This document shows, one piece after another, positions 6,028 through 36,700 of a stretch of DNA of 64,000 bases (positions are counted from its first letter, which is position 1; every line of letters starts with the position of its first letter). A program made the translations under genes and the position numbers. Below the pieces are notes generated by a model that saw only the letters and a program-made list of their open reading frames with translations, was not told the DNA's origin and did not search any database. Source of the DNA: a virus; IMG/VR virus record IMGVR_UViG_3300032296_001209, positions 1-64,000 of that record; one strand, given 5' to 3'.

Positions 6028-6411
6028 ATGAAAACAAGACTTACATTAATCATCCTAACACCTATTATGTTGTTAGGACTACACCACATCGCTGCAATTT
6101 TTTACAAGTTTAATAGAATGCGGGACTTATATATTAAGAAGTTCCAGTATTACAAAAGAAAGGGTTTAGTTAAAGACTCATACTGTGAGTACTATATACA
6201 AGCCTTTGGTGAATTTAGATTTTGGATGTTTAAAGAGTTTGTGTTTAGAAAGCACTACACTATTAAGCATTTCTTTGAAGATACATATGTATATAAGAAT
6301 ATGTCTGCTTATTACATAAAAGAATCCGGGGATATCCCATTTATGCCAGAACTAAATGGTATCATGGAATACTGGAAAACACAAAGACAGTCACAAAACA
6401 GTAGGGGGTAG
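6028..6411 (+). CDS. hypothetical protein with N-terminal TM
   Basis: 127-aa ORF followed by a terminator. Confidence 0.7.
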   Translation: MKTRLTLIILTPIMLLGLHHIAAIFYKFNRMRDLYIKKFQYYKRKGLVKDSYCEYYIQAFGEFRFWMFKEFVFRKHYTIKHFFEDTYVYKNMSAYYIKESGDIPFMPELNGIMEYWKTQRQSQNSRG

Positions 6412-7367: not shown

Positions 7368-7540
7368 AAATAGAATCAACTTACTACAACTTTTTCAGAA
7401 AGAAATTAGGACAAAGGGACTATCCCTACATCTTCTTTTATCCATTACCATTTATTGCTATTTCTAGAACCGGGGTAACCTATAAGTTCAGTGTAACATT
7501 AGGATGGTTATTCTGGACAATTTATCTAAAATTTAAATGA
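7364..7540 (+). CDS. 58-aa hydrophobic protein (absent from ORF track)
   Basis: Translated by hand; ATGA overlaps on both sides. Confidence 0.7.
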   Translation: MKIESTYYNFFRKKLGQRDYPYIFFYPLPFIAISRTGVTYKFSVTLGWLFWTIYLKFK

Positions 7541-8640
7541 CAAAAAGAGACCAAGTACAACAAAATGCATTAATAGAAGTAGTTAAACATAAAAGAAGTA
7601 GTGCTGTAATGAGTATGGGTGCTGGTAAAACTAAACTGGGCCTAATGCATATGCAGTATTATCTACATGATCAAAGCAGATACCTAGTAGTAGCACCCAA
7701 AAGATCTATCTTCCAATCTTGGATTGATGATTGTAAAAAGTTTGAGTGTGAAGAGTTACTAGAGCATATCACCTTTACAACATATTTATCTTTAAGTAAG
7801 AATAAAACAGATTATGACTGTGTGTATCTAGATGAGATGCATAGTCTATTAGATAGTCACCTAGAGTGGCTTGACAGTTACCGGGGAAGAATACTAGGTC
7901 TAACAGGTACACCTCCTAAGAGAGGCTCTAAAGCAGATATAGTATTTAAATACTGCCCGGTTAAGTTTACATATACTGTAGACACCGCAATTGATGATAA
8001 AATTCTTAATGATTATGAGATTCATGTGCATACAATGCCATTGGATACTAGAAATAACATGAAGAAAGAATCTAAGAAAACGGGTGTGTGGTATACATCA
8101 GAGTTTAAGCAGTACACTTTCTGGAATAATAAATTACAGAATGCCAGTAGTGAGAAAGAAGTAAGGTTCTTAAGAATCATGCGCATGAAAACACTGATGA
8201 GTTTACCAAGCAAAGAGAAATATGCTACACAGCTTATGAATAATAGTAATCATAAATGTATAGTATTTGCTAACACAAAAGAGCAGGCTGATAAACTTTG
8301 TAGATATAGTTACCATTCTGGAAATAAGAAATCTGAAGAAAACCTTCAGAACTTTAAAGATGGTGTTATAAACAGACTAAGCTGTGTGCTACAACTTAAT
8401 GAAGGTATTAACATTCCTAATCTTAAGGAAGGTATTATCTTACATAGTTATAGTAATGAGCGTAAGTCTAATCAGCGTATAGGTAGATTGCTGAGACTAA
8501 ATCCGGATGATAAATCTATTATTCATATTTTATGCTATAGTAATACTATAGATGAGACATGGGTAAAAGAAGCACTATCTGATTTAGATCAAAACAAGAT
8601 TACCTGGAAGAACATTAATCAATTAGAATTAGATTTATGA
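7537..8640 (+). CDS. superfamily 2 DExH helicase
   Basis: GAGKT, DEMH, LTGT, EGINIP and QRIGRLLR motifs. Confidence 0.9.
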   Translation: MTKRDQVQQNALIEVVKHKRSSAVMSMGAGKTKLGLMHMQYYLHDQSRYLVVAPKRSIFQSWIDDCKKFECEELLEHITFTTYLSLSKNKTDYDCVYLDEMHSLLDSHLEWLDSYRGRILGLTGTPPKRGSKADIVFKYCPVKFTYTVDTAIDDKILNDYEIHVHTMPLDTRNNMKKESKKTGVWYTSEFKQYTFWNNKLQNASSEKEVRFLRIMRMKTLMSLPSKEKYATQLMNNSNHKCIVFANTKEQADKLCRYSYHSGNKKSEENLQNFKDGVINRLSCVLQLNEGINIPNLKEGIILHSYSNERKSNQRIGRLLRLNPDDKSIIHILCYSNTIDETWVKEALSDLDQNKITWKNINQLELDL

Positions 8641-15173: not shown

Positions 15174-15192
15174 GTTTTAAAGTTTATTATAT

Positions 15193-15222
15193 AAAAGGGG
15201 GATTATATGGTCCCCCTTTTTT
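15193..15222 (+). terminator. intrinsic terminator
   Basis: AAAAGGGGGA-TTATATGG-TCCCCCTTTTTT. Confidence 0.85.
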
Positions 15223-15234
15223 ATTATTGCAGTT

Positions 15235-17052: not shown

Positions 17053-17065
17053 ACCCAAACTTACT

Positions 17066-18205
17066 ATGAAAAAAGACGAAGAACTGGCATTAGCCGGGAA
17101 AGAACTTATGCTTGAACAACCCTTCTATGGTATGTTCTTGATAGGTCTTAACAAAGAATGGAATAACAGAATTCCAACTGCTGGTGTAAGCAAACACAAC
17201 ATTAATTATAAGCTTGTGATTAACTCAGATTTCTGGGCTAGTCTACCACATGACCACAAGAAAGGTCTATTGTGGCATGAGCTTCTACATATTGTGTTTG
17301 ATCACCTTAACTTACGGGATGAGTTTGCAGACAAGAAGTTATTTAACATAGCTGCTGACTGTGAGCTTAATCAGTACATTACTCTAAGCTGTCTTCCAGA
17401 TGGTGCTATCTTACCTAGTTCATTTCCTAACTTGAGACTTGATTACAAAGCAGGTACTAGATACTATTATGATATGCTACAAAAGAATCAAGATGATGAA
17501 GATGTACAAAACATGATAGGTAATGGTGATGATATGCATCCTACATGGGAAGAGTTTGATAACCTAAGTGATTCTGAAAAGAAATTACTTAAGTCTCAAG
17601 CTGAGTATCAACTTAGAGAGGCAGCAGAAGAGTGTCTAAAAGCTAGAGGTCATTTACCTGGAGAAATTAGTGAGATTTATAAAAGAATCACTGCAGTTAC
17701 TCCAAGTAAATTTAACTGGAAAGCTTATCTGAGAAGATTTGCTGGTAACTCTTACATTGTTGAGACTAAGTTATCTAGAAAGAAGATTAACAAGAGATAT
17801 CCGGATGCTCCCGGAATGAAATTTAAACCCAAGAAACATATCTTGGTTGCAATAGATACATCTGGTAGTGTGAGCAATGATGAACTTATAGAGTTCTTCA
17901 ATGAAATTAAACACATGCATAAAACCGGAACAGAGATTACAGTATTACAGTGTGATACAGAGATTACTAGTGTTGAGAGTTATAACCCTAAGAAGGATGT
18001 AGAAGTCAAAGGCCGTGGAGGTACTGAGTTTGATCCCGTACTAGAATATTATAACAAGAATACTAAAAGATACACATGTCTTATTTATTTAACAGATGGT
18101 GAATGTTATACAACAGTTACACCAAGAGGTAGAATGCTTTGGGTTATTTCTTCAAAAGCCCAAATCAATGAGCAACTACCCGGTCCCCAAATTCAATTAA
18201 ATTAA
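17066..18205 (+). CDS. zincin metallopeptidase plus VWA domain protein (DUF2201-like)
   Basis: HELLH, NIAAD, MIDAS DTSGS, GRGGT and LTDG motifs. Confidence 0.88.
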   Translation: MKKDEELALAGKELMLEQPFYGMFLIGLNKEWNNRIPTAGVSKHNINYKLVINSDFWASLPHDHKKGLLWHELLHIVFDHLNLRDEFADKKLFNIAADCELNQYITLSCLPDGAILPSSFPNLRLDYKAGTRYYYDMLQKNQDDEDVQNMIGNGDDMHPTWEEFDNLSDSEKKLLKSQAEYQLREAAEECLKARGHLPGEISEIYKRITAVTPSKFNWKAYLRRFAGNSYIVETKLSRKKINKRYPDAPGMKFKPKKHILVAIDTSGSVSNDELIEFFNEIKHMHKTGTEITVLQCDTEITSVESYNPKKDVEVKGRGGTEFDPVLEYYNKNTKRYTCLIYLTDGECYTTVTPRGRMLWVISSKAQINEQLPGPQIQLN

Positions 18206-22388: not shown

Positions 22389-22420
22389 GGTCTTGAGGAT
22401 TGCCATATAAACCAACAATC

Positions 22421-22450
22421 AAGGGGGATGTAATAGTCCCCCTTTTTTTT
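22421..22450 (+). terminator. intrinsic terminator
   Basis: AAGGGGGA-TGTAATAG-TCCCCCTT followed by a T tract. Confidence 0.85.
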
Positions 22451-22458
22451 CTAAAACT

Positions 22459-24441
22459 ATGAAGAGACATTGGGTAATGGATATAGAAACTATGTCAGAT
22501 TTCTTCTGTGCTGTATTTGAGCACTATAAAGAAGAGTCTGTAACAGAGTTTGTAATATCCTTTAAAGAGAATCAGATTAAAAAGCTAGTAGATTTTATTA
22601 ATGAGAACATTAAAAGTGAGGAATGGCATATCAGTTTTAATGGTCTTGACTTTGATGCACAAGTAATACAGTATATCATTGATCATGCTCAGGAACTTAT
22701 TGTACTAGACTCTGCACAAATTACAGATAAACTATACAAAGTAGCGCAAGATATTATCTATAGAAAGAATAATGGCGAGTTTGCTCTGTATAGTCACAAG
22801 CAATTAAAGATTAATCAGATAGATTTATTTAAACTTAATCACTGGGACAATCCGGCTAAAAGCTCTAGTCTTAAGTGGTTGGAGTATACACTAGATTGGC
22901 ACAACGTAGAGGAAATGCCTATACATCATAGTGATAGCATAGACACCATTGAGAAACAAGAGATGGTACTAAGCTATTGTAGAAATGATGTAAAGTTCAC
23001 CAAAAAAATAATGGAGTATAGTAAATCTCAGATTGCTTTACGTGGTGTACTTACAAAAGAATATGGTATTAACCTGTACAGTGCTAGTGAGCCAAGGATA
23101 TCTAAAGAGCTATTTAAGTATTTCTTATCTAAAGCTACCGGGATTAGTAGTTATGAGCTCAACGGTCTTAGAACTAACAGAACTCTTATCAAAGTAAATG
23201 ATATCATTCTAGACTATGTAAAGTTTAAAACACCAGAGTTGCAGGCGCTGCTAGATAAGTTTAGAACTATTGAGTTGGACCCTAAAGAAACTAAAGGTGG
23301 GTTTGCTCATAGTGTAACTTATAAAGGTATGCAGACTGATTTTGGTCTAGGTGGTTTACATGGCGCACGTTCCGGAATCTTTGAAGCTAAGAATGGTATG
23401 ATAATAATGTCATCAGATGTTGTAAGTTATTATCCCAATCTAGCTATTAAGAATAAATGGGCCCCGGCTCATCTTCCTAAAGAAGAGTTCTGTGAGCAGT
23501 ATGAGTGGTTCTTTACAGAGCGTAAGAAGATCCCTAAGAAAGATCCTAAGAACTATGTATACAAGATCATCTTGAACAGTACTTATGGCCTTAGCAACGA
23601 TAAGAATAGCTTTCTGTATGATCCTGAGTTTACCATGCGTATTACTATCAATGGTCAGCTAAGTCTATGTATGCTTTATGAGATGATAGCAGAAGGTATA
23701 CCCGGTGCTATTCCTATAATGCAGAATACAGATGGTCTAGAGATGATGATACCTGAAGAACATAAAGCAAAATATCTTGAGATATGTTCTGAATGGGAAA
23801 CAATCACTCAGCTAGCACTGGAACATGACCAGTATCAGAAGATGATTATTGGTGATGTAAACAATTACATTGGTATAAATACCCACAGGGAAGCAGATCA
23901 AGAGACTTTAATTAGTCTTAAAGAAGATGAGCCCTATTATGTTTATACTGATAATGGTTATTCCCCGGTAAAGTGTAAAGGTAGATTTGAGTTTCACCAC
24001 TTAGCATTACATAAGAATAAATCTTTCTTAATCATCAGAAAGGCGCTCTATAATTACTTTGTATTTAATACCCCGGTAGATAAGACTATTCTAGAATCTA
24101 AAAGCATAGTTGATTTCTGTGGTGGTATAAAAGCAAAAGGTGATTGGAGATTTACAAGTAACTGCATGATTAAGGGTGTGCTCATAACAGAACCGTTACA
24201 GAAAATAGTGAGATACTATATCTCTAATAAGGGTTGTAAGATACTAAAACAACACAGAGATGGTAGAATCATACAAGTAGAATCAGGTAGATGGTTGCAG
24301 ACTACATTGAATAAGTTAGATAAAAAAGATTGGGATGGTTATGATATCAACTATGATTATTATATTAACAATGCAATACGTGAAATTATGAATGTATGTC
24401 CAGAAAAGATAGCTTACCAACAACTAGAACTAAACTTATGA
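22459..24441 (+). CDS. family B DNA polymerase
   Basis: Exonuclease DIE and FNGLDFD; polymerase DVVSYYP, KIILNSTYG and NTDG motifs. Confidence 0.92.
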   Translation: MKRHWVMDIETMSDFFCAVFEHYKEESVTEFVISFKENQIKKLVDFINENIKSEEWHISFNGLDFDAQVIQYIIDHAQELIVLDSAQITDKLYKVAQDIIYRKNNGEFALYSHKQLKINQIDLFKLNHWDNPAKSSSLKWLEYTLDWHNVEEMPIHHSDSIDTIEKQEMVLSYCRNDVKFTKKIMEYSKSQIALRGVLTKEYGINLYSASEPRISKELFKYFLSKATGISSYELNGLRTNRTLIKVNDIILDYVKFKTPELQALLDKFRTIELDPKETKGGFAHSVTYKGMQTDFGLGGLHGARSGIFEAKNGMIIMSSDVVSYYPNLAIKNKWAPAHLPKEEFCEQYEWFFTERKKIPKKDPKNYVYKIILNSTYGLSNDKNSFLYDPEFTMRITINGQLSLCMLYEMIAEGIPGAIPIMQNTDGLEMMIPEEHKAKYLEICSEWETITQLALEHDQYQKMIIGDVNNYIGINTHREADQETLISLKEDEPYYVYTDNGYSPVKCKGRFEFHHLALHKNKSFLIIRKALYNYFVFNTPVDKTILESKSIVDFCGGIKAKGDWRFTSNCMIKGVLITEPLQKIVRYYISNKGCKILKQHRDGRIIQVESGRWLQTTLNKLDKKDWDGYDINYDYYINNAIREIMNVCPEKIAYQQLELNL

Positions 24442-24689
24442 TTAATATAGAAAAACAACCGATTCACAAGACTGAGGTCTTTATTCACAATGGTACTTAC
24501 ATAACTAAGGATGCATGGGAAGATGAGATAGATTTAACACCCTATCCTTTCTCATGCACACTTAGAATAGATCATCTACAACAATCTGTTACTTGTAGTG
24601 TAGTTTGGCCGCAAGTAAAACCACCTGGTACAGAAGCTATAGAAGTAGAGATTGAAAAAAAACTAAGAAAAATCTATGTCAACCCTTAA
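24438..24689 (+). CDS. hypothetical protein
   Basis: ATGA-coupled start at 24438. Confidence 0.65.
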   Translation: MINIEKQPIHKTEVFIHNGTYITKDAWEDEIDLTPYPFSCTLRIDHLQQSVTCSVVWPQVKPPGTEAIEVEIEKKLRKIYVNP

Positions 24690-25170
24690 TGAAAAAGAAG
24701 TATTAAAGATCCAGCTACATAATTTAAAATTAGCACTTAGGAGAAAAGAGGAACAACTTATTAAGATCAAGGAAGAATACAGTAGTGAATTACAAAAGGT
24801 AAAGAAAGATTACGGAGTAAAGTTATTACATCTACGTATTACTCTCTCACCTAAAAAGGAATTAACAGACAATGTTATACCTCTGCTTTGTAACATACTG
24901 CATTCTGTAACAGGTGTATCCGCTAAAGAGATATTAAGTAAGTCCCGCAAAAGAGATTACATTATACCTAGGTATGTGATTATTCATATACTTAGATTAG
25001 AAGGTAAAACACTCCAATTTATTGGAAAAACAATTGGTAATCAGCATCATGCAACTATTATACATGCTATTAGAATTGTAGAAGACTGGCATACATATCC
25101 AGAGTACTACAAGAAAGAAATAGAAATATATAATAAAACAAAGAAAATGTTTGAAGAAATAAAAAACTGA
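24676..25170 (+). CDS. coiled coil plus DnaA domain-IV HTH protein
   Basis: ILSKSRKRDYIIPR...IGKTIGNQHHATIIHA. Confidence 0.8.
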   Translation: MSTLNEKEVLKIQLHNLKLALRRKEEQLIKIKEEYSSELQKVKKDYGVKLLHLRITLSPKKELTDNVIPLLCNILHSVTGVSAKEILSKSRKRDYIIPRYVIIHILRLEGKTLQFIGKTIGNQHHATIIHAIRIVEDWHTYPEYYKKEIEIYNKTKKMFEEIKN

Positions 25171-25179
25171 TTATATTTG
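25150..25179 (+). promoter_or_regulatory. Bacteroidota promoter TTTG-N18-TATATTTG
   Basis: Both -33 and -7 boxes present, upstream of the candidate sRNA and tRNA. Confidence 0.8.
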
Positions 25180-25182
25180 CAT

Positions 25183-25272
25183 TGTCTTCTGATTTTCATA
25201 GTAAGCTGCTCACAAAGTGTATTAGGTCATGCCTGTTTCCTGATACACTTGAGTAGCTTAAGCTGAACACAA
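25183..25272 (+). ncRNA. putative antisense sRNA in the pre-tRNA 5' leader
   Basis: Hairpin 25202-25260; segments complementary to minus-strand mRNA at 32816-32840 and 27049-27070. Confidence 0.65.
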
Positions 25273-25346
25273 TCCTTGGTAGCTCAGTTGGTTAGAGCAA
25301 CTGACTGTTAATCAGTAGGTCACTGGTTCGAGTCCAGTCCAGGGAG
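25273..25346 (+). tRNA. tRNA-Asn(GTT), CCA not encoded
   Basis: Acceptor TCCTTGG/CCAGGGA, D arm, ACTGA-CTGTTAA-TCAGT anticodon arm, GTTCGA T loop. Confidence 0.95.
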
Positions 25347-25364
25347 CAAATAAAAACTAAACAC

Positions 25365-25652
25365 ATGAATACATTTACACTTAGAGGACGAAGAATTCTC
25401 CTTGACAAACCACACAAAGAAACTTTTGGCATTGAATTAACAGAGGCTGCTAAAGCTGAAGTTGATGCTGAGATGATGAAGAAATGGACAGCATTAACAA
25501 TATATGCTGTTGGTACAGAAGTAACTGAAGTAAAAGTAGGAGATAAAATATATATCCCTAGTTACGTTTTACAAAGCGCTGAAATAGTTGATATGCAAGA
25601 TGAAGGCATTAAGATTATGATAGGTGAGCAAGATATTGCCATTATTTGGTAA
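25365..25652 (+). CDS. GroES-like co-chaperonin
   Basis: LRGRRILL, GIEL, AVG..VKVGD and EQDI motifs. Confidence 0.75.
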   Translation: MNTFTLRGRRILLDKPHKETFGIELTEAAKAEVDAEMMKKWTALTIYAVGTEVTEVKVGDKIYIPSYVLQSAEIVDMQDEGIKIMIGEQDIAIIW

Positions 25653-25653
25653 T

Positions 25654-25735
25654 ACTAGGTAACCACTAACCCTCTGGTAGTAGGCGTTGATCAGGATGGA
25701 ATGCTAAGGTCATGTAAGCCCTGCCTAGTTTTTTT
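25654..25735 (+). ncRNA. multi-stem structured element ending in a U tract (terminator or ncRNA)
   Basis: ACTAGGTA/TGCCTAGT outer stem, inner hairpins, T7. Confidence 0.45.
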
Positions 25736-25738
25736 AAA

Positions 25739-26377
25739 ATGAGCACACAAAACGCAAACATCCCTCAAGTAAAGTGCTATATAAGGAACTCTTATATAGG
25801 ACTTGGTGATGGTGTCACTGAAGGATATATGTTTGGTGTAAAGTGTATATTAAATAAACCATTGTTATTTCATTTTCAAAGTAGTTTTGGGGCTGTATTT
25901 TGGATGCAGCCTCTCTCTGCTTTTGTACACAAACCGGACTTTGATAAACTCTCTGATGATGAAGAGACTAGATTAAGTTTATTACAAACCTGGGATTGTC
26001 AAAGTAATTTTTTATCAGTAACAACCTTTGCTTTCTTACAACATAAGAGAGTAGATGTACTATGTAGAGATGGTAAGTGGAGATCCGGTCATTATCTGTT
26101 TACTATAGATGATTACTACGGTGATCTAAATGAGCTTAACTTAGGTTATGCTACAGACAATGACACCAAGTGTTATCAGTTTATACAGTTAGAAGACGGT
26201 AACTACTGTGCACATCCAAACAACTTGCTTAGATGGCATAATCCAGACTTTATTGTTCCCTATGATAAGGACAATATACCCAAGTTAAAAATTAATGCTG
26301 AAGATTACAGCTCAGAAGATGTAGACAGGACCTATGGTAATAGTCCTTACTTCTTCTATAATGATCCTAATCACTAA
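25739..26377 (+). CDS. hypothetical protein
   Basis: 212-aa ORF. Confidence 0.75.
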   Translation: MSTQNANIPQVKCYIRNSYIGLGDGVTEGYMFGVKCILNKPLLFHFQSSFGAVFWMQPLSAFVHKPDFDKLSDDEETRLSLLQTWDCQSNFLSVTTFAFLQHKRVDVLCRDGKWRSGHYLFTIDDYYGDLNELNLGYATDNDTKCYQFIQLEDGNYCAHPNNLLRWHNPDFIVPYDKDNIPKLKINAEDYSSEDVDRTYGNSPYFFYNDPNH

Positions 26378-27053
26378 AGGTCTTATATACTTCTAGTATA
26401 GGAGAAACTATACTATGTCTGTGATTTTGTAATAAAGCAAAGACCTTAAATCCCTGAACATGTTCTTCTATACGTGCTAAGAAACTAAAGCCGGATGTCT
26501 TCTTATCTTTAAGATCTATCTGGGCAATGTCACCACAGATTACCATCTTACTTTCTTTACCCAATCTACCTAGAATAGCCTCCATCTGAGAGTGTGTAAC
26601 ATTCTGGGCCTCATCTACAATGATGAAACTATTTACAAACGTTCTACCTCTTACAAATGCAAAGGGTACAATCTCAATATTACCAAACTCTATCTCTTTA
26701 TCTATCTTCTCTTTGTTATATAGAGCATATAGATTATGATAAATAGGCGCTAACCAGGGGTCCATTTTTTCTTTAATGTCTCCGGGTAAGAATCCTATAT
26801 CTTCTTTAGATACAGTAGGTCTAGTAATAATAATCTTGTCAACCTCTTTGTTAAATAACATATCAAGAGCAACTTGACAGGCTACAAGTGTTTTACCGGA
26901 GCCTGCCATACCTTTTAATACAGTTATTGGATTGTCAAGAATCAGAGACTTAGCTCTTTTCTGCTCCTCATTTAAAGTTATTTGAAACTTAATGGGATTC
27001 TTGGGCCTTCTTTTTGCTTTGAAGACCTCATCTTCATGTGAATTTGATGTCAT
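26367..27053 (-). CDS. phoH: PhoH-family ATPase
   Basis: GMAGSGKT, TRP, GFLPG, RGRTF, DEAQN and GDIAQID motifs. Confidence 0.95.
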   Translation of the reverse strand: MTSNSHEDEVFKAKRRPKNPIKFQITLNEEQKRAKSLILDNPITVLKGMAGSGKTLVACQVALDMLFNKEVDKIIITRPTVSKEDIGFLPGDIKEKMDPWLAPIYHNLYALYNKEKIDKEIEFGNIEIVPFAFVRGRTFVNSFIIVDEAQNVTHSQMEAILGRLGKESKMVICGDIAQIDLKDKKTSGFSFLARIEEHVQGFKVFALLQNHRHSIVSPILEVYKTFSD

Positions 27054-27235
27054 GCTTGTTCTCCGTTACAGCAAGGTATAGCATTTTGTTTACATACCGG
27101 GCACTGATAGTGACCATGTACAAAAATATATTCTACCCTACTATTACAAAATACACAATAATCAGAAGTTTTTATGCATGAGAGACTCTTGCACTCCTGA
27201 TTGTCCGTGGTATTTGCTTCCTGGTTTTTTGTCAT
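27050..27235 (-). CDS. small Cys-rich zinc-ribbon protein
   Basis: CVFC...HGHYQCPVC...CC; start uncertain (overlaps dcd). Confidence 0.55.
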   Translation of the reverse strand: MTKNQEANTTDNQECKSLSCIKTSDYCVFCNSRVEYIFVHGHYQCPVCKQNAIPCCNGEQA

Positions 27236-27695
27236 AAGTCTGGAGAATTTTACCTGCTACACGTTCAAACTTGATTTGACAGATCTTCATGTTAGGATAA
27301 ATACGTAATGGTTTTACCACACGCATCTCTAATACTAGAGATCCCATAAATCCTGAATCAATAAATCCGGCACAGATATGAATATCTAAACCTAATCTAC
27401 CTAGACTAGACTTACCCATAACTGTAGCACAGATATCTTCCTTTACTCCAATAGTTTCATTGCATGAGTAAAGATATAATTCACCTGGCTGTAACACATA
27501 ACCCTCTTCAGGAATCTCAAATTCCTCTACAGGATTAGGTTGTCTGCAGTCTAAAGTATTACCCGTATATATTTTACATTTAGGGTTTAAAGTTAAATCT
27601 ACAGAGTTTGGATTTAAATACTCATGTTTAAAAGGAGAGATTATAATCATACCTCTTTCATGCTCTAATAAAATTTCTGAATCTGCAAGTACCAT
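27162..27695 (-). CDS. dcd: dCTP deaminase
   Basis: NPNSVDL, GKSSLGRLG, AGFIDSGF.G..VLE and KY.GQ motifs. Confidence 0.92.
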   Translation of the reverse strand: MVLADSEILLEHERGMIIISPFKHEYLNPNSVDLTLNPKCKIYTGNTLDCRQPNPVEEFEIPEEGYVLQPGELYLYSCNETIGVKEDICATVMGKSSLGRLGLDIHICAGFIDSGFMGSLVLEMRVVKPLRIYPNMKICQIKFERVAGKILQTYDKKPGSKYHGQSGVQESLMHKNF

Positions 27696-27700
27696 AGTCG

Positions 27701-27719
27701 CAAATATATACTAAATTTG
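27701..27719. promoter_or_regulatory. back-to-back Bacteroidota -7 boxes (divergent promoter)
   Basis: TATATTTG on minus (27701-27708) and TAAATTTG on plus (27712-27719), each 4-5 nt from an ATG. Confidence 0.7.
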
Positions 27720-27723
27720 TGAT

Positions 27724-28350
27724 ATGTCGGATGTAAAATCTGTAATTGGTATACCCACTATAAATAGAGCTGATCTTCTAGAAGGCGCATTAGATTTATA
27801 TGTAAAAAACTGGAAAAGAAATATCTTTATTGTAGATAATGGTAATCAAATTATACAACCAAGACCTATAGTAAAAGTTATGAAAATGTCTCATAACTTA
27901 GGCGTATCTGGTAGCTGGAATCATTTATGTAAAACTTTATTTGCTCAAGGGTATAGTCACGTATGTCTACTCAATGATGATATAGTTTGGAATAAAACCC
28001 AAGACCAGGTAGATAAATTTATAGAGGAGAATCCTACTGACTTTTATGTTGGCACCGGTACGTGGTGTAACATTGTATTACCCAAAACAACTTGGGATAT
28101 AGTGGGACCATTTGATGAAGAGTTTTATCCGGCTTACTTTGAAGACAATGACTATTGTTATAGAATGAGATTAGCGGGACTTAAGAGAATTAACTCTGAG
28201 TTTTTTAACCCAGAAGTATTTAGAAATAGCCAGACTATTGCTAGAGATAGTTCTCTCAATAAAAACTTTGATAGAAACAGAGAAAGATATAAAGAGAAGT
28301 GGGGAGGTTACCCTTTAGAAGAAACATTTAAAACTCCATACAATGAGTAA
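27724..28350 (+). CDS. glycosyltransferase family 2
   Basis: IPT.NR, VDNG, LLNDD, FDE.F..AYFEDNDY motifs. Confidence 0.88.
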   Translation: MSDVKSVIGIPTINRADLLEGALDLYVKNWKRNIFIVDNGNQIIQPRPIVKVMKMSHNLGVSGSWNHLCKTLFAQGYSHVCLLNDDIVWNKTQDQVDKFIEENPTDFYVGTGTWCNIVLPKTTWDIVGPFDEEFYPAYFEDNDYCYRMRLAGLKRINSEFFNPEVFRNSQTIARDSSLNKNFDRNRERYKEKWGGYPLEETFKTPYNE

Positions 28351-28894
28351 AGAATTATATCCAATGCGTGGTCAAGAGTTCTTAGTAAAAGGACTTATTG
28401 ATCTTTGTGACTTTGTATCACAAGCACTTAACAGGCCTACTTATGAGTTAACTATTTGTGAGATAGGTAGTTACAGTGGAGAAAGTACTAGTATTTTTGC
28501 TAGTAGATTTAAATATGTATTAGCTGTAGATCCCTGGATGGATAATTATGATCCGGATGATGCTGCTTGTCATCATGCTGCTTTTAGTGAAGTAGAAAAA
28601 GCTTTTGATCAGCGCATGAGTTTCTATCCTAATGTAACTAAGTTAAAAGCAACAAGTGATGATGCAGTTAAACAATTAAAAGATGCACGTTTTGATGTTG
28701 TTTATATAGATGGTTTACATACATATGAGCAAGTAAAGATTGATATTGCAAACTATGCGCCTCTTACAAACTTTATTGTTGCCGGTCATGATTATAATAA
28801 GACAGATTGGCCAGGAGTATACAGAGCTGTAAATGAATCATTTGACCAACCAATTTATACATTCCAAGATACATCATGGGCCAAGATATTATAA
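28343..28894 (+). CDS. class I SAM-dependent methyltransferase (Methyltransf_24-like)
   Basis: EIGSYSGES, VDPW, YIDGLHTYE and GHDY motifs. Confidence 0.88.
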   Translation: MSKELYPMRGQEFLVKGLIDLCDFVSQALNRPTYELTICEIGSYSGESTSIFASRFKYVLAVDPWMDNYDPDDAACHHAAFSEVEKAFDQRMSFYPNVTKLKATSDDAVKQLKDARFDVVYIDGLHTYEQVKIDIANYAPLTNFIVAGHDYNKTDWPGVYRAVNESFDQPIYTFQDTSWAKIL

Positions 28895-30717
28895 ACCTAA
28901 GTATTATTATACCCTTCTCTAGAAAGACTATTAATCTAGATGAGATAGTAAATAGTATTGGTAATCTTACTAATGCTAATTTAGAAGTAATCATTGTTAC
29001 AAGTGATGATAGAAAAGATGAGGTAGAAACTTGGTTACCTAAAAGTTTAAACATCAGTGTATACTCTACAGATGAACCAACAGTATCCGGTAATAACTAT
29101 AGAAACATAGGTGTTACTAAAGCTACAGGAGATTGGATTTACTTCTTAGATGATGATAACATTGTGCACCCTAACTTTAATGATCTATTAGAGTACATGG
29201 ATAAAGAAAGAGATGTTATATTCTTCTCTCAAATATTTGCAAATCAGAAGCTCAGACTAATGCCCGTTAGTATAGATGTTGGTGGTGTAGATACCGCAAT
29301 GTTTTTAGTAAAGAAATCTGTGATGGATAATCACAAATGGGAGGAAGGAGCATATACAGCTGATGGTATACTAGCTAAAGAACTTAGTGAGTACAACTGT
29401 CAATATATTTATACCCCGTATTGTTTTTATAACTATCAACAAGATACAGTATTTAATGAAAATACGGTCCCCAGTAGAAAGATTCTAGCTTATATGGACT
29501 TTGATTCTCCAACAGGATTTGCTACTGTCTCTCATAATGTACTTGATAGATTAACTCCCTGGTTAATTGAGAATAAAATTAAAGTAGATGTTGCTGCTTT
29601 AAACTATGGTGATAAACCACATGCTAGATATAATCAAGCTATTACTATTATTAATCCAATGGCTTTTGCAGATAATGCAGAAGACTATTATTGGAGAGAT
29701 GGTATATTAAAATTGTTAAGTAATGGAGATTACGATCTTTTTTGGGCTATGAATGATGTACCGGTTATTGGACCAATGGCAGATTTTATAAAACAATCAC
29801 AGATTAAAAGAGAGTTCTATAATAGAAAACCATTCAAGACTATTCTCTATACTCCTATTGACAGTGTACCGTTTGCTAGGTACTTTAATAATTTAAACTT
29901 CTTTGATGAGATTGTTACATACACAGAGTATGGTAAAAGAATGGCACTGGATGCTTTCTATAAGTCTAACAAGAATGTTATTACAGATGTAAAGTTTGAT
30001 ATCATTGCACATGGTACAGATAAAGAAACATTTAAGAAATTAAGTAACAAGAGAGAGCTGCGAAAGAAGTATGACTTACCTGAAGATGCGTTTATCTATG
30101 GTAACTTTAATACTAACTCTCCTCGTAAAGATTTTGGTACAACACTAATTGCTTTCTCTTATCTTAAAAAACAGAGACCGGATATAAACTCTGTTCTCTA
30201 TTTACATACTGAGCCCAATGATGAACAGGGAATTAAAATGTATGTAGCCTGTGAAAGATTAGATTTAAAACCAGGTAAGGATGTATTCTTTCCTTTAGCA
30301 GATAAACATAAAAGAAAGAAATACTCTACCAAAGAGATCAATGAACTCTACAACTGTCTAGATGTATTTGTTACAAGTACTACTGCAGAAGGTTGGGGAC
30401 TAACTGTAACTGAAGCTATGGCTTGTGAGTTACCAATTGTATGCGGTTTACATACATCATTGAATGAAATTACAGACAATGGTGAATTAGTATATGCTGT
30501 AAAGAATATATATGAGCACATACAAATTGAAGACGCAGAAAATATCCGGGAAGTATTAGATCCTAAAGAAACTGCACAGAGAATGATAGAAGCTTATGAG
30601 GATTGCAAATTAGATATTGCAAAAACATTCTACTCCCATAAAATGGAAGAGTATGATTGGGATAAAATAGCTGAACAGTGGAAAGAAAAGTTTAAGAAAA
30701 TACTTTACTTACCCTGA
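28876..30717 (+). CDS. GT2-GT4 fusion glycosyltransferase
   Basis: N-terminal IIIP...FLDDD; C-terminal TGFA, RK and EGWGLTVTEAMAC motifs. Confidence 0.85.
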   Translation: MGQDIINLSIIIPFSRKTINLDEIVNSIGNLTNANLEVIIVTSDDRKDEVETWLPKSLNISVYSTDEPTVSGNNYRNIGVTKATGDWIYFLDDDNIVHPNFNDLLEYMDKERDVIFFSQIFANQKLRLMPVSIDVGGVDTAMFLVKKSVMDNHKWEEGAYTADGILAKELSEYNCQYIYTPYCFYNYQQDTVFNENTVPSRKILAYMDFDSPTGFATVSHNVLDRLTPWLIENKIKVDVAALNYGDKPHARYNQAITIINPMAFADNAEDYYWRDGILKLLSNGDYDLFWAMNDVPVIGPMADFIKQSQIKREFYNRKPFKTILYTPIDSVPFARYFNNLNFFDEIVTYTEYGKRMALDAFYKSNKNVITDVKFDIIAHGTDKETFKKLSNKRELRKKYDLPEDAFIYGNFNTNSPRKDFGTTLIAFSYLKKQRPDINSVLYLHTEPNDEQGIKMYVACERLDLKPGKDVFFPLADKHKRKKYSTKEINELYNCLDVFVTSTTAEGWGLTVTEAMACELPIVCGLHTSLNEITDNGELVYAVKNIYEHIQIEDAENIREVLDPKETAQRMIEAYEDCKLDIAKTFYSHKMEEYDWDKIAEQWKEKFKKILYLP

Positions 30718-30845
30718 CCTCTATACTTAGATTGAGGAGTAGCTTTAGGTCCTACAGACTTGTGAGCTTTACCCTTCTTCTTGTTTACATTTTTAGGTGC
30801 CAAGCTCTTAGCCATGCTGTTACCACCTTTTTTTGCTGCCGCCAT
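30705..30845 (-). CDS. 46-aa basic protein ending KYRGQGK (absent from ORF track)
   Basis: Translated by hand: MAAAKKGGNSMAKS...YRGQGK. Confidence 0.7.
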   Translation of the reverse strand: MAAAKKGGNSMAKSLAPKNVNKKKGKAHKSVGPKATPQSKYRGQGK

Positions 30846-30858
30846 ATATATAATATAA

Positions 30859-31746
30859 TTAAAATACTCGATATAAATTAAACATATCTGTATATATAGA
30901 GTTTAATGGATTAGCACTAGCCCATTGAGCAGTAATGTTTAATGTATTACTTATAGTAGTATTAAATGTAGTATTGTTTAGATTATAAAAACCAATACTC
31001 TCAGGAGAATTACTAGCATTCTTATTGTAAGCAAATCTACCGGATGTTGCAATACTTGCAATACCTGAAGTTCCTATAGATCTTACTGTAAAGTTTACAT
31101 ATAATTCCCAGTTTTTATTTGTTGTAGCCGCCAGAGTCATTAATCCTGTGTCTGCCAATGTAAAACCATTTGACATACAGCGAATCTCTAATTGCTCATT
31201 ATTTACAGAAGATATTTTTCCTGATAGATAAGCAATAAAAGAATCCCCAAGTTTAAAACCACCAGCAGGTACAGTTAATGTACCAACTCCACCATCTATT
31301 AAAGTAGTAGAAACGGTAGTATTTGTAATTACAATACTGTCAGCTGTTTGAGCATATAATCCGGGACTTAAACCACTACCTTGACCATAAGTTAAAAGAC
31401 CATTTGAGGTATTATAATAAACTATATTAGGTGTTGTTACATTTGCAAGATTAGCATTTATAGCACCAACACTAATATTATTTAAAGTTATGTTTCCTGC
31501 AGTAGTTACCTGGTCTAATGTTACATTCCAAGTTCTATTTGCAGATAGATCATAGGTTACACCATTGATTGTAAGTGTTCTACTATTTGGAACACTATCA
31601 TCTGTAGATTGATTTAATGTAGCCGCAAGATATCTTAGATGTACGGTGTCCCTTCTATATTTAATTTCTTTGGTAGCCCGATAAATCTGTTCCGTTTCAT
31701 TGGCCCAAAGATTTAATTCTGCAGCTAATACAGCTAATTTTATCAT
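30859..31746 (-). CDS. putative tail fibre/virion structural protein
   Basis: RTLTINGVTYDLSANRTW and TLDQVTTAGN fibre-like repeats; Thr/Asn rich. Confidence 0.6.
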   Translation of the reverse strand: MIKLAVLAAELNLWANETEQIYRATKEIKYRRDTVHLRYLAATLNQSTDDSVPNSRTLTINGVTYDLSANRTWNVTLDQVTTAGNITLNNISVGAINANLANVTTPNIVYYNTSNGLLTYGQGSGLSPGLYAQTADSIVITNTTVSTTLIDGGVGTLTVPAGGFKLGDSFIAYLSGKISSVNNEQLEIRCMSNGFTLADTGLMTLAATTNKNWELYVNFTVRSIGTSGIASIATSGRFAYNKNASNSPESIGFYNLNNTTFNTTISNTLNITAQWASANPLNSIYTDMFNLYRVF

Positions 31747-31799
31747 AGTTAATCCCTTATATATAATTTACATTATTTTAGGGATAAATAAATGATTTA

Positions 31800-32111
31800 T
31801 TACTTTTTGTCAGGATTGCGAGGCTTGTATTTCCTCTTTTTCTTTGGTTTTACTACTTGCTTTTCTTCTACCTCTTTTTCTTCAGATGTAGAAATAGCTT
31901 CTTTCATAACCTTTTCAGCTGCTTCTACAGTAGAATTTACTGCTGAATTAATTGCTGAATTTACAGAGGATTGAATACCCGCTTTAATCTTTTGATGCAT
32001 TTCATTAAACAATGCATTCTCTTTTTTCTCTAAGCGTAAAGCAAGAATAATTAGAATTATTAGGATAACACCTAATACAATTCCTAAAACAATTTGTGGA
32101 GTCATAATCAT
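31800..32111 (-). CDS. single-TM membrane protein
   Basis: Strong N-terminal TM; TATATTTG box at 32122-32129. Confidence 0.65.
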   Translation of the reverse strand: MIMTPQIVLGIVLGVILIILIILALRLEKKENALFNEMHQKIKAGIQSSVNSAINSAVNSTVEAAEKVMKEAISTSEEKEVEEKQVVKPKKKRKYKPRNPDKK

Positions 32112-32112
32112 A

Positions 32113-32538
32113 TTATTTGTACAAATATAATCTAAAATATTCAAAATCTTCTTCACCACCTTCCTTCTTATATTTTAGAAAGGCATCATATACAGGGCCC
32201 ATAAATTTTGCTTCATCTTCTACAGTTGCTGTATCTAGTCCGGCACTAACCATCTTAATAGCATACATCTCATTTACCTGAGACATTACTTTAACTTGTT
32301 TTTCTGCTACTATTACTGCTTCTTTTAGCTCTGCTTTCTCTTCTACTTTAGTCTCTACTAATTTTTCACTAGTCTTTTGAGCAATCTGAGTTACTTGAGA
32401 AGCAACTTGTAAATTCTTTTCAATCTTCTTAAGCATCATCTCAATATCATCTACAGGAGGTGTTGTAATAGCATTAACCGGGAATGATATTTTAATAGCA
32501 ATAAGGAACGTAATAAAAAAGATAACTAAAATTCTCAT
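32113..32538 (-). CDS. signal/TM plus coiled-coil protein in the lysis cassette
   Basis: N-terminal hydrophobic segment; heptad repeats. Confidence 0.6.
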   Translation of the reverse strand: MRILVIFFITFLIAIKISFPVNAITTPPVDDIEMMLKKIEKNLQVASQVTQIAQKTSEKLVETKVEEKAELKEAVIVAEKQVKVMSQVNEMYAIKMVSAGLDTATVEDEAKFMGPVYDAFLKYKKEGGEEDFEYFRLYLYK

Positions 32539-32813
32539 AACTTTTTAACTGTATTAATGATACGTAATTCTGTAATAGCAGCAGCAAGTGCGCTATCTGA
32601 TTTTTTAAGAGCGTAATTCATCCTATCTATCTTTAATTCAAGATTATTCATCTTCTCATTAGAGATCCTAATCTGATCAGCATAACCCGTTTTAACGTCA
32701 TAGTACAAATAGCTAACAGCCACAAGCATACAAAAAGCAACGGCAGCAACTGGGTTCTTTTTAAATTGGTCAAATGTGACAGGAAAGGCATTGGGTGTTT
32801 TTTTAATAGTCAT
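32535..32813 (-). CDS. single-TM coiled-coil protein in the lysis cassette
   Basis: TM PVAAVAFCMLVAVSYLY plus coiled coil; follows the endolysin. Confidence 0.6.
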   Translation of the reverse strand: MTIKKTPNAFPVTFDQFKKNPVAAVAFCMLVAVSYLYYDVKTGYADQIRISNEKMNNLELKIDRMNYALKKSDSALAAAITELRIINTVKKL

Positions 32814-32839
32814 AATGTCTTCTGATTTTTATAGTAAAC

Positions 32840-33427
32840 TTACTTAATGTCTTTAGATTCAATAAGGGTATAGGTAAAAGAGTTACCACCTAAAGTAGCC
32901 GCTTTTTTACAGATTGCCATAAACGCATCAAAGTCTGCAGATTTCTTGAACACTTGGCAGCCCTCTGACCAGTTTTCCACATAAGTTGAATCTGCACCAG
33001 CCTTGTGAATATTAATACCAAAAATGCCTTCTTGTATCTTTGTTTCATCATAGTTCATGTCTTTATTGGCATCACGGTATACTTTAACATTAGCCTTCTG
33101 TTTAAGGGCCTCATACTTACCTTGGTGTAATCCAAGATGGTGTGAACCAGAATATTGACCGGGCACTAAGCGTGCAACACCAGCAGCATTGTGAAATTCT
33201 TTAACACCCTTAGTTCCGGGATCAGTTGTAGCAGGCCAAATTTTAAATTTCCACTCACCATTTTCTTTGTAAGAAAGAGTTAAGTGATCATCAAATACAT
33301 TGGTTACTTTGTTACCAGTAGAAGAATTACGTACACCAATGATGTTTACATTGAAGTCACCATTCTCAAAGTACTTGTAACCTTTGGCTTTCATTGCAGC
33401 CTCAATTTGTTCTCTAGTATAGCTCAT
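32840..33427 (-). CDS. putative endolysin with YkuD/L,D-transpeptidase-like catalytic motif
   Basis: GINIH...WSEGCQV; flanked by a holin-like gene. Confidence 0.65.
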   Translation of the reverse strand: MSYTREQIEAAMKAKGYKYFENGDFNVNIIGVRNSSTGNKVTNVFDDHLTLSYKENGEWKFKIWPATTDPGTKGVKEFHNAAGVARLVPGQYSGSHHLGLHQGKYEALKQKANVKVYRDANKDMNYDETKIQEGIFGINIHKAGADSTYVENWSEGCQVFKKSADFDAFMAICKKAATLGGNSFTYTLIESKDIK

Positions 33428-33428
33428 A

Positions 33429-33454
33429 ATAGTTTATAGTTTATAGTTTATAGT
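33429..33454. repeat. tandem heptamer (ATAGTTT) x3.7
   Basis: Read directly; immediately upstream of the endolysin ATG. Confidence 0.85.
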
Positions 33455-33464
33455 AAACAGTAAA

Positions 33465-33713
33465 TTACTCCTCAGTTTTAGCTTCTGGCTTCTTCATGAT
33501 TTTCTCAACAGAAGTCAAACCTAAACAACCAAATGCAAGCAATGCAACCGCATCCACCAATGGAGTAGAGGGAGCAAAGTGTGCTTCAGTAAAAGAGTTA
33601 GCATACAGAGTAGCGCAAAGAGTTAAAGTGCAGACTAAGCCACACAGGCGCTTCATGGAAACGGAGCCTTTTTCATCTTTGAAAAGACCACCAATAAAGT
33701 TTAATAGTTTCAT
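33465..33713 (-). CDS. putative holin (2 TM)
   Basis: SMKR followed by two TMs and a charged tail; precedes the endolysin. Confidence 0.65.
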   Translation of the reverse strand: MKLLNFIGGLFKDEKGSVSMKRLCGLVCTLTLCATLYANSFTEAHFAPSTPLVDAVALLAFGCLGLTSVEKIMKKPEAKTEE

Positions 33714-33795
33714 ACGGTATAAATTTTTTTACCGCAGTTGATTCGGGATGCAGCCCTAGATGGTTTTTAGGGTACTACATATATAATATACAAAA

Positions 33796-36700
33796 TTATC
33801 TCCTAATTTGGTACTCCATACCTTTCAAAGCTTTAACTGGATCAATTTGATTACCAGTAAATCCAAACAAGTATCCAAAGTCATTGAAAATTTTAGGTGC
33901 ACCTTCTTTCTGCCATGAGTAAGGACCTACATCTCTTGTATAGTAGGCACGGTTATCATTAGAAAGTAAGTGAAGTAAGTTAGTACCAAAATCTTTATAC
34001 TTATCTACAACGGGACCTAATGTAGGTGCTCCTCCATTGTATACTAATCCTACATATTCTTTTGGATTTAAGAAAGTAATTGTTTCTTGTCTAGTACCCA
34101 TTGTTGCAACAAGTGCATGGTTTACTAACCAGCCACCAGCATTGAAGTTATCAGATAATAAATCACCACTTCTTTGGCGCATCTTTTCAAATCTTTCTTC
34201 ATCATCCGGATCATAGTCAAATAAGTAAGCAATGATAAGAGCCAGTAATGTAATACTAATGCCTTCAGTTACTATCTTCTTAGCAGCATATGCTTCATCA
34301 TCTGTCATATACATATTACCACTAGAGGCTCTAGAAACAAAAGACTTTAAGAATCTAGCAAATGATCTGTAATAACCTTCTGTCATATCTCCACTACGCA
34401 TATTATATCTCAAAGGACTAAATCTATTTACAAACATTCTTGTAAAGAATCTTCTTAATCCTGAGAACATTCTCCATACAGCATACTTATCAAGCATTAC
34501 TTTATCCATTAAAGAATAAGCACCCTGTAAGTCGTTACTCTTTTCCTGTATAGTATTACGCATTGCTTTAAACTCTGCACCACCTGGAGCATATGTTTCA
34601 TCAATACCTGGTTTTAGTTTAATAATTCCCTGACCATCTTTCTCCCAAGCATCTATGTAATTGATCATATTTGTTTGGCCATTTACTGTTTGTGGTATCT
34701 TTTTAAAGATCATCATACCCGCAAACAAAGAAAGTGTACCTTCATTTTCTAACCATTTTCTTGGAGCAGTATATACACCATTTGATATACCTTTACCTGC
34801 TCCAAACATTAAACTATCTGCTAAGTCAGTACCAAAGGATCTACCAAACTCAGTACCAAAACGTTCTTGGAATCTACCTTTGATAGGATCAAAAATCTCA
34901 ACTAACTGATAGTCAATACTTTTCTCACCGGGATTATAGATATTAGCAGAGATGTCTGTCATTATCTTTAAAGCTTTTGACTGTCCTTGTAAATAAGAAC
35001 GCTTGTTAAGATACTTACCACCACCTGATTCAATGATCATTTGTGTAACAGCACCACCAAAGTTTTTAACTGCAGATGGTAAAATGTTAAATGCAAACAT
35101 TCCAAATGAAGATTGTGACTGTAAAATATCTACAGCTTTACTTAATGTAGTAGGCTCAGATAACCAACCGGCTTTTGTTTGTCCTTTAAACTCTCTTTCA
35201 ATAAGAGTATTGATTGCTTCAGCTCTTACGTTCTTACCTTTCTTTGCAACAAAAGATTTAATGTTGTTAGTTACCCAATTATAACCATTTACTTTAGAGG
35301 TATCCTTAATAGAATTCTCAGAGTTATTTACAACTTTCTGTAAAGCTTGAGCAATAGGATTTAACTCAATAAGTTTTTTCTGGTGCTCTAACGAGAACAT
35401 GTATTGCAATAGAGAGTACGGTACATTTAATGATACCTGATCTATATCTAGTTTATATAATCCTTTTACAGGAATAGATGAGATCTCTTCGTCAAACATG
35501 TCAGCTCTAACTAAGTTAAACGCATCATCATAGTTGAAGCCCTGATCAAAATCATCTTGAGATGTTGTTACAGCATCTTTAACTTGCTTAACAAAAGTCT
35601 TTACTTTCTCTGCACCTCTATTTAAACTACCGCCTACTAATTCACTCTTAAGCTTTCTGAATCTTGGAATATCTAAATATAGTCTACTATACTTAGTTTT
35701 ATCTTCCTGGAAAAGAAGTGTGTACTTTGTAATAACATCAAGGACATTTGCTTTATCCGGAGAATTCTTTTGTAAATCATAATAAGCTTTATTGATATAA
35801 GAATCATCCTTTGCTCCTTCTGCTACTGTTCTTGGTAACCAGTTACCACGGTTATCAACGTGCACCCCTACTTTACGCTCTACTTTACCGGTTGTTTTAT
35901 TATACCCAGTTCTGTATTCTTTTTTAACAGCTCTTCTGTAAAAATCCATAGTAGGTATTCTATCTAAAGTAACTTCAGTAGTCTCACCTGTAGATGGATT
36001 TACATCGTTATACGTGTAAGTATTATAGTATTCTAGATCAGAAGGAATTGTTACATTCCAAACATATAATCTTTCATATACGCGCTCATCCTTTTTAGTC
36101 TTACTGTTGTACTTTTCTGTTTCAATGTGATTAGCAAGAAACCATTCTTTAAATTCAGGACTTGCTTTAAAGTACTTAGATAAGAATGCGGGCTTTAAAA
36201 AATTATCTGAGTTATCAGTATTAATTTCACTAATAGTAAAACCAGCAAGTTTAGCAGGATCAATAGCCTCTAGATTATTATTAAATGCAGATAAGTAATC
36301 ATCAGTTGGTTCTTTAGATTGCATATCAGATAGCTGACTATATAAATTTAATAATGTCTTCTTAGTTAATCTATCTACAGCACCTTCTCCCTTTAATTTA
36401 TCTAATTCTTTAAACTCTTCTTTATCATTTATAGATGCTCTTCTGCTTTTAATTAACTTAGCTAGTTCTATGTATCTTTCAAACTGTAGTTTACTTAGAC
36501 CACTAAAGCCAGCCATGTTGTCTTTAATTTTAATCAGTTCTTTCTGTAGTTCTTTTACCCGTTTGATTCTTTCTTCAGACATTTCTGATCCAACAATTTG
36601 TCCATCAGCATTTCTAAATCCTACAGATATATCAATAAGCTCTTCCCAAAGCTCATCTTGCTTTAGTTTACTAGCTGCATCTTTTGGTAAACCATCTACT

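Follow-up and report, generated by a model that had tools for sequence, protein, structure and literature searches.

The c4 antisense RNA of phages P1 and P7 is excised by RNase P from a longer transcript, and its exposed segments block translation upstream of a gene start. Some by-products of tRNA processing are functional or stable small RNAs, such as 3'ETS-leuZ (Escherichia coli glyW-cysT-leuZ) and those that arise from the tRNA cluster of T4. In Bacteroides thetaiotaomicron, the small RNAs (sRNAs) GibS and FopS each have a canonical promoter, followed by a 5' seed that is single-stranded and a hairpin that serves as terminator; they repress by pairing with the start regions of mRNAs that have no Shine-Dalgarno sequence, and extended seeds are usual in this setting of AT-rich RNA (PMC7366714, PMC11697453). 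PeSL cassettes of T4-like phages combine a promoter with a stem-loop and are multi-copy recombination points (PMC2839356, PMC4122927). Here, we describe a leader (25150-25260) that precedes a tRNA-Asn gene in the first 64 kb (hereafter the window) of the 97,353-bp virus record IMGVR_UViG_3300032296_001209. The record represents a freshwater crAss-like phage, and the sequencing runs that contain the window are mostly freshwater metagenomes. The leader is a conserved, structured unit whose 5' segment is complementary to the region just upstream of a lysis-cassette gene. We tentatively favour the reading that it is sRNA-like and able to pair with start regions, pairing with the mRNA of this 92-amino-acid (aa) protein gene being a lineage-specific addition. 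An earlier note on the same DNA had proposed a phage antisense sRNA matured by tRNA processing and directed at two targets, the lysis gene and phoH.

The leader unit and the sites first discussed with it are as follows.

25150 to 25179, plus strand: Bacteroidota-type promoter, assigned from motif and conservation, with a -33 TTTG (25150-25153), an 18-nucleotide (nt) spacer and the -7 box TATATTTG (25172-25179).

25183 to 25207, plus strand: segment 1, the predicted single-stranded 5' end of the transcript, with a conserved core at 25184-25204 (GTCTTCTGATTTTCATAGTAA).

25202 to 25260, plus strand: long hairpin with an outer stem (25202-25212/25250-25260), an inner stem (25216-25226/25239-25249) and a 12-nt loop (25227-25238).

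25260 to 25347, plus strand: lineage-variable cassette composed of a 13-nt linker and tRNA-Asn(GTT) at 25273-25347 (ARAGORN; Rfam tRNA, 72.4 bits).

32816 to 32840, minus strand: spacer from the endolysin stop to the AUG of the 92-aa gene; segment 1 RNA is complementary to positions -27 to -3 relative to this AUG.

32535 to 32813, minus strand: 92-aa lysis-cassette gene, the candidate target of segment 1; as read by eye, its product has an N-terminal hydrophobic stretch followed by a polar region.

Relatives of the locus (seven viral contigs and nine metagenome loci) were collected by protein-anchored and pattern searches, most of them with the helix-turn-helix (HTH) protein encoded upstream of the leader as the query; searches of GenBank phages returned tRNA matches only and no relative of the leader locus. 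The promoter, segment 1 and hairpin are present directly after the HTH gene in all ten relatives' loci. The promoter-like motif noted earlier (TTTG-N18-TATATTTG) indeed precedes the leader. Its -33 TTTG falls in the last codons of the HTH gene, and its -7 box lies in non-coding DNA and is invariant across the ten relatives. The window shows no enrichment of the bipartite pattern (3 occurrences versus 2.3 expected); the -7 box, as TAnnTTTG, is concentrated about 5-fold in the roughly 3% of the DNA that is non-coding, usually 5-33 nt before start codons, and GATTATATTTG is also found before other genes, e.g. at 32129 on the minus strand. Motif and conservation together support a predicted promoter of its own directly 5' of the leader, as an sRNA would have. 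The short distances from box to ATG elsewhere in the window, together with the start sequence (A)ACT ATG AAA of many genes, suggest very short or absent 5' untranslated regions (UTRs) and a Kozak-like start context.

The 90 nt between the promoter and the tRNA fold as an almost unpaired 5' segment followed by the 59-nt hairpin, with a folding energy of -32.7 kcal/mol (z = -5.2; as good in 0 of 200 shuffles), which bears out the earlier description of a hairpin with CAU in a 12-nt loop. The stem has undergone compensatory changes, e.g. GTGTATTAGG/CCTGATACAC versus GTGTACTAGG/CCTAGTACAC, and four pairs are altered on both sides across the relatives. In 5 of the 10 relatives, the stem ends in a U-run (TTTTTTAT) as an intrinsic terminator would, and promoter, seed and terminator are then arranged as in an sRNA gene. 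The window has AAGCTGAACACAA after the stem, without a U-run, and a terminator scan lists nothing there, so that the window's hairpin does not have the form of an intrinsic terminator. In the minimum-energy fold, most of segment 1 is left unpaired. It is 95-100% identical in six lineages and 87% identical in one, whereas the flanking gene DNA of those six is only 70-77% identical; segment 1 is far more alike than the flanking gene and is therefore under a constraint of its own. These features give it the appearance of a conserved single-stranded seed of the kind expected in an sRNA. The unit occurs once per genome (BLAST of 230 loci, comprising 1.68 Mb of related loci, plus the genome), and we rejected a PeSL-type repeat family on this ground. 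Identification of the stem as a CIRCE operator (TTAGCACTC-N9-GAGTGCTAA) was also rejected, because the spacing of the arms, as read by eye, is wrong. The outer stem arms TAATCACTC...GAGTGATTA of one clade (L002:3530-3584 and the equivalents in L004 and L226), which lie upstream of the Cpn10-like gene, fit the CIRCE arms at 7 of 9 positions each, but they lie about 44 nt apart instead of 9, which is probably coincidence, and the arms of the window type fit worse.

Segment 1 (25183-25207) is identical to 32816-32840 at 23 of 25 positions on the same DNA strand. An RNA made from the leader is therefore complementary, as had been claimed, to the part of the minus-strand lysis mRNA that lies from the endolysin stop (32840-32842) to the AUG at 32813. 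When every 25-mer of the leader was compared with both strands of the window, this was the sole match with three or fewer mismatches. The whole 97-kb genome contains 11 direct and 0 inverted pairs of 25-mers with at most two mismatches, and the other pairs seen sit in runs of similar gene starts and in coding repeats; from base composition, about 0.13 such direct pairs would be expected in the genome. The duplex of segment 1 with the start region of the 92-aa gene has an energy of -26.3 kcal/mol, compared with -23.2 kcal/mol for the best of 300 dinucleotide shuffles, and the match thus holds up against shuffled controls. On cofolding, the hairpin is kept while segment 1 pairs with the spacer, for a net gain of about -21 kcal/mol. 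The match exceeds what chance would give. Coincidence in AT-rich DNA could be argued from the estimate just given, since without a prior hypothesis a single pair somewhere in the genome is not impossible; yet both copies fall in the small non-coding fraction, no shuffle reaches the duplex energy, and a second lineage, about 82% identical, carries the same pair of copies, which refutes coincidence and makes it hardly conceivable. Similarity does not extend beyond the 25 nt: the flanks of the leader and spacer copies align no better than shuffles (best p = 0.07 in 12 comparisons).

The second-best partner of segment 1 lies at another gene start.

17060 to 17072, plus strand: start region of a DUF2201 gene (VWA/metallopeptidase-like; Pfam DUF2201) at 17066-18205.

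Pairing at this site comprises 13 contiguous pairs over the AUG and 7 more, with a duplex energy of -21.2 kcal/mol, which 0 of 300 shuffles reach as a second-best value. In two relatives, 12-13 nt of this pairing are kept with no compensatory change; where leader and target differ, only one state pairs. The reverse complement of segment 1, CTTACT ATG AAAA TCAGAAGAC, itself resembles a start region of this phage, in which AACT ATG AAA is common. The sequence (A)ACT ATG AAA opens many genes of the window, e.g. those at 6028, 11290, 17066, 21426 and 22459. Two coding explanations of segment 1 were rejected. A minus-strand small open reading frame (ORF; MKIRRQ...) starting from the ATG in the reverse complement is shifted in frame by 1-nt indels in L226 and L227, and a plus-strand leader peptide starting from TTG/ATG at 25182 would have 3 codons in L102 and 6 in L228, with no start codon in L226. 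The exact 21-nt complement of segment 1 is absent from 185,579 prokaryote genomes, a result that shows little because real targets may be inexact. The GibS/FopS-like layout, the likeness of segment 1 to a start region, and the position of its two best partners at or just upstream of start codons, with energies that beat all shuffles, lead us to favour the sRNA-like reading; we infer from them that the leader would exist as a discrete RNA species that pairs with its targets and represses them in vivo.

The position of segment 1 also brings a DNA-level explanation into consideration, for which the upstream gene is relevant.

24676 to 25170, plus strand: upstream gene for a 164-aa protein with a DnaA domain-IV-type HTH (Pfam Bac_DnaA_C, 6e-13; NCBIfam DnaA, 4.9e-11).

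Segment 1 could be an operator bound by a phage protein, e.g. this HTH protein, with the lysis copy as a second site and orientation irrelevant. It occupies about +1 to +25 of the promoter, which is a classical operator position, both copies have the same DNA orientation, and the HTH gene adjoins the leader in every relative's locus. The last of these is not an independent observation, because most relatives were found through the HTH gene. Segment 1 is, by eye, not palindromic and unlike a DnaA box, no promoter is evident at the second copy, and most genomes have a single copy; we regard an operator as improbable.

The unit at 25150-25260 is self-contained and conserved in this phage clade; it is made up of a host-type promoter, a single-stranded 5' segment of about 20 nt and a long covarying hairpin. 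If sRNA-like, it would double as the 5' part of the transcript for tRNA-Asn in the window and for a terminator, a small ORF or a Cpn10-like gene in relatives. In the window, the leader would be released by RNase P cleavage at tRNA-Asn. The best predicted partner of segment 1, in the window genome as in one other lineage, is the spacer before the 92-aa gene; a duplex across positions -27 to -3 would cover the site where ribosomes land and reduce translation of the 92-aa gene.

The spacer copy is found only in the window genome and in the lineage of G006 and G007, which is about 82% identical to the window in this region and shares the 92-aa cassette and the spacer. In that lineage, TCTTCTGATT is changed to TCTTCTAATT (G to A) in the leader and the spacer alike. 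Cognate leader/spacer duplexes have energies of -32.5 and -30.9 kcal/mol, and swapped combinations -31.6 and -25.4 kcal/mol, so that cognate pairing is no less stable than swapped pairing. Covariation of guide and target in relatives, by which the earlier note proposed that its claim be judged, therefore amounts to one concordant change, seen in the single further lineage that carries both copies.

The lysis cassette offers clues to the origin of the repeated 25 nt.

32840 to 33427, minus strand: endolysin-like gene, 195 aa (phrog_3000, 3.9e-39; endolysin phrog_33083, 7e-13).

This gene is followed by a spacer of 26 nt and then the AUG at 32813. The 92-aa protein has no Pfam, PHROG or NCBIfam match and has 341 relatives in metagenomes, the close ones (P0002-P0011) being 91-99% identical. 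In about 300 other phages, its homologue is usually preceded by a small membrane-protein (holin-like) gene that ends in ...YYYKKIKE and overlaps it at ATGA. The spacer aligns to the last 22 nt of these holin-like genes (p about 0.005), which suggests that a holin-like gene was deleted here and probably left its 3' end behind as the spacer. Segment 1, read as its reverse complement, aligns to the same 22 nt (p about 0.004) and may have been captured long ago, in inverted form, from the holin-like/92-aa junction; similarity of the whole leader to holin-like genes is not significant (p = 0.19). Homology between the window and G002-G005 ends exactly at the endolysin stop (32837-32840), where G002-G005 carry a different, lipoprotein-like gene, and none of the listed contig pieces bridges 32742-32840. 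In G006/G007, a GIY-YIG endonuclease gene is inserted between the endolysin gene and the spacer. In G006 (L110:2671-3348), the GIY-YIG/NUMOD gene is followed by a short copy that resembles the endolysin 3' end, and in the G006/G007 lineage each of the two copies of the 25-nt element has a free-standing homing-endonuclease gene beside it. A fuller scenario, in which a host-style 5'-seed sRNA has as its seed the ancient inverted capture of this junction, represses the 92-aa gene wherever the relic spacer persists with the two sites co-evolving, and forms its 3' end interchangeably by a terminator or by RNase P cleavage at a tRNA, is a further possibility, which we consider unlikely.

Several observations weigh against the sRNA-like reading. 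Two complete genomes, G002 and G005, keep segment 1 and have neither a second copy at 19/22 or better nor the 92-aa gene. Since segment 1 is unchanged where the spacer copy and the gene are missing, its conserved function cannot be lysis-gene control, and the lysis target does not explain its conservation. The co-variation concerns one site in one pair of lineages, with an estimated probability of coincidence of about 0.08, and gene conversion would give the same shared G-to-A change. The spacers of the window and G006 differ at 2 of 25 positions (92% identical); by our reading, the 5' end of the 92-aa gene next to it is conserved just as well. The clade of L002, L004 and L226 has neither a U-run nor a tRNA, so that no discrete 3' end is evident; there, the hairpin continues straight into the 5' UTR of a Cpn10-like gene. 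An Rfam cmscan search of 24000-34000 (E up to 1), which covers GibS and FopS only if they are present in release 15, returned only the tRNA and one sub-threshold unrelated match. A single RNA-library contig covers the leader; it comes from a relative that lacks the target and extends from the upstream gene across the leader into the Cpn10-like gene, as fits a plain 5' UTR. This contig is an assembly that shows neither ends nor strand and may derive from DNA carry-over; its run contains only the relative without the spacer and is uninformative on expression of the window's own RNA.

The downstream gene of the window is the counterpart of the gene reached by that contig.

25365 to 25652, plus strand: downstream gene, 95 aa, divergent Cpn10/GroES-like (NCBIfam GroES, E = 0.078, weak).

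Its product shares 43% identity over 40 aa with a relative that matches Pfam Cpn10 at 4.6e-13; a structure model of the 95-aa protein was too poor to use (mean pLDDT 40). The main rival to the sRNA-like reading is that the leader acts in cis only, as the 5' UTR of the downstream operon, and that both 25-nt copies are neutral relics of a holin-like 3' end without regulatory consequence, which we regard as possible though doubtful. The leader is the direct 5' UTR of the Cpn10-like gene in most relatives, one clade lacks a terminator, and the RNA-library contig bridges the three parts in the manner this explanation predicts. Conservation of segment 1 in genomes without a target copy, the likeness of both copies to holin-like 3' ends, and the location of the spacer exactly at a mosaic breakpoint also fit it. 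In the minimum-energy folds of relatives, moreover, the 5' end of segment 1 is predicted to pair with codons 7-11 of the Cpn10-like gene. On the other hand, an old neutral duplicate should drift, yet the copies differ at only 2 of 25 positions within each of two genomes that are about 82% identical, and in one lineage a substitution is common to both copies. A free 20-nt 5' tail before a hairpin is also, from general knowledge, not the usual form of a 5' stabiliser.

The earlier note regarded maturation by tRNA processing as part of the system. An intact tRNA-Asn does stand directly 3' of the leader in the window, as it had stated. ARAGORN detected no intact tRNA in any of the ten relatives' loci, and conserved co-transcription with a tRNA, or release from one, was thus found in none of them. 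In L222, whose HTH protein is 100% identical to that of the window, and in 99% identical contigs of two DNA runs, 25260-25347 is replaced exactly, with 25259 joined to 25348 by 181 other letters that include a small ORF. This small hydrophobic ORF stands in place of the tRNA cassette at L222:10585-10770 and in contigs of runs X3 and X5; its internal start region CTTACTATGAA is complementary over 11 nt to segment 1 of the same transcript. In two distant lineages, an HNH endonuclease gene interrupts this tRNA, of which the first 20 nt alone remain (L102:972-1310 in the G006/G007 lineage; the same stump is found in the distant L229 at about 7440-7900), and the linkage of leader and tRNA is therefore old but has repeatedly been lost. 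Since the leader is conserved without the tRNA, release by RNase P is applicable to the window lineage only, and tRNA processing is not a conserved property of the unit.

The second proposed target is the start region of phoH.

27049 to 27070, minus strand: PhoH start region, the proposed target 2, judged not to be a target (17/22 match; gene at 26367-27053, phrog_170, 6e-68).

Segment 2 (25226-25247) does match this site at 17 of 22 positions, but the match is marginal, because the window holds twelve other 17/22 matches of leader 22-mers. The duplex formed by the free 22-mer ranks first among start regions, and 3.5% of shuffles do as well; for the 12-nt loop alone that share is 60%, and 9 of the 22 nt of segment 2 lie in the hairpin stem. 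Across the relatives, the start region of PhoH hardly varies, with one position changing within the 22-nt site, while the match falls to 13/22 and 12/22 by our own count. The CAU of the loop is UAU in most relatives, and the loop of L228 is altogether different. With the loop at chance level, a match that decays while the PhoH start region barely changes, and no covariation between the two, PhoH was rejected as a target, and the claim of multiple targets falls with it.

Taken as a whole, the earlier model of an RNase P-released tRNA-leader sRNA, in which two guides time the translation of the 92-aa lysis gene and of phoH, is consistent with the intact tRNA of the window, the antiquity of its linkage to the leader, the real complementarity of guide 1 and the first rank of the free guide 2. 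The replacement or loss of the tRNA even in the nearest relatives, the partial burial of guide 2, its decay and the dozen equally good matches elsewhere in the window argue against it. It is already largely refuted as regards PhoH and dependence on the tRNA, and we consider it very improbable. What stands of the proposal of a phage antisense sRNA is the conserved, structured, promoter-proximal unit and a segment 1 that is near-perfectly antisense just 5' of the AUG of the 92-aa gene; the two targets and the tRNA maturation do not.

Other features of the window were noted apart from the leader. A plus-strand block of three genes (27708-30705), encoding a GT2 glycosyltransferase, a methyltransferase and a GT2+GT1 fusion protein, lies within a minus-strand region and is skipped cleanly in contigs of two DNA runs (27708 joined to 30705 with 7 letters between); the block is therefore a swappable cargo module. 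Contigs of three DNA runs skip 230 nt at 31368-31599, with AACAG between, within a 295-aa gene (30859-31746), which represents an indel variant of an unannotated gene. Where plus-strand gene blocks end, two GGGGGA...TCCCCC hairpins with T-runs (15176-15225 and 22414-22463), also listed by the repeat finder as a 50-nt inverted pair, resemble intrinsic terminators.

If the sRNA-like reading is correct, the leader would add a phage member, from an uncultured crAss-like lineage of the environment, to the 5'-seed sRNAs that block start regions and have only recently been described in Bacteroidota. It would also be an antisense regulator that arose from an inverted copy of its own target, with 3'-end formation interchangeable between a terminator and tRNA processing. 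If it is only a 5' UTR, it is a conserved structured leader at a gene-swapping hot spot, which would be ordinary. Either way, the original claim fails as regards tRNA processing and the two targets.

Compared with known systems, the leader differs from 3'ETS-leuZ and the T4 RNAs, which depend on their tRNA context, in that it is conserved without the tRNA. The c4 RNA acts on its own operon transcript through two loop segments, whereas the candidate target of the leader lies on the opposite strand at a distance of 7.6 kb, a single segment is credible, and release by RNase P is confined to the window lineage. Like PeSL cassettes, the unit is a composite of promoter and stem-loop in a hyperplastic region with indels at its edges (the tRNA, the small ORF, the HNH gene and the GIY-YIG gene); unlike them, it is present in a single copy, and the part that is repeated is only 25 nt long and includes neither promoter nor stem. 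The closest likeness is to GibS and FopS, with which the unit shares a Bacteroidota promoter, a conserved 5' segment complementary to start-region-like sequence, and a hairpin. It differs from them in being phage-encoded and present once per genome, in serving also as a 5' UTR, in having no Rfam match at E up to 1, in the much greater length of its hairpin (59 nt), which is without a U-run in the window and one clade, and in that its targets are candidates, whereas GibS and FopS repress the mRNAs with which they pair.

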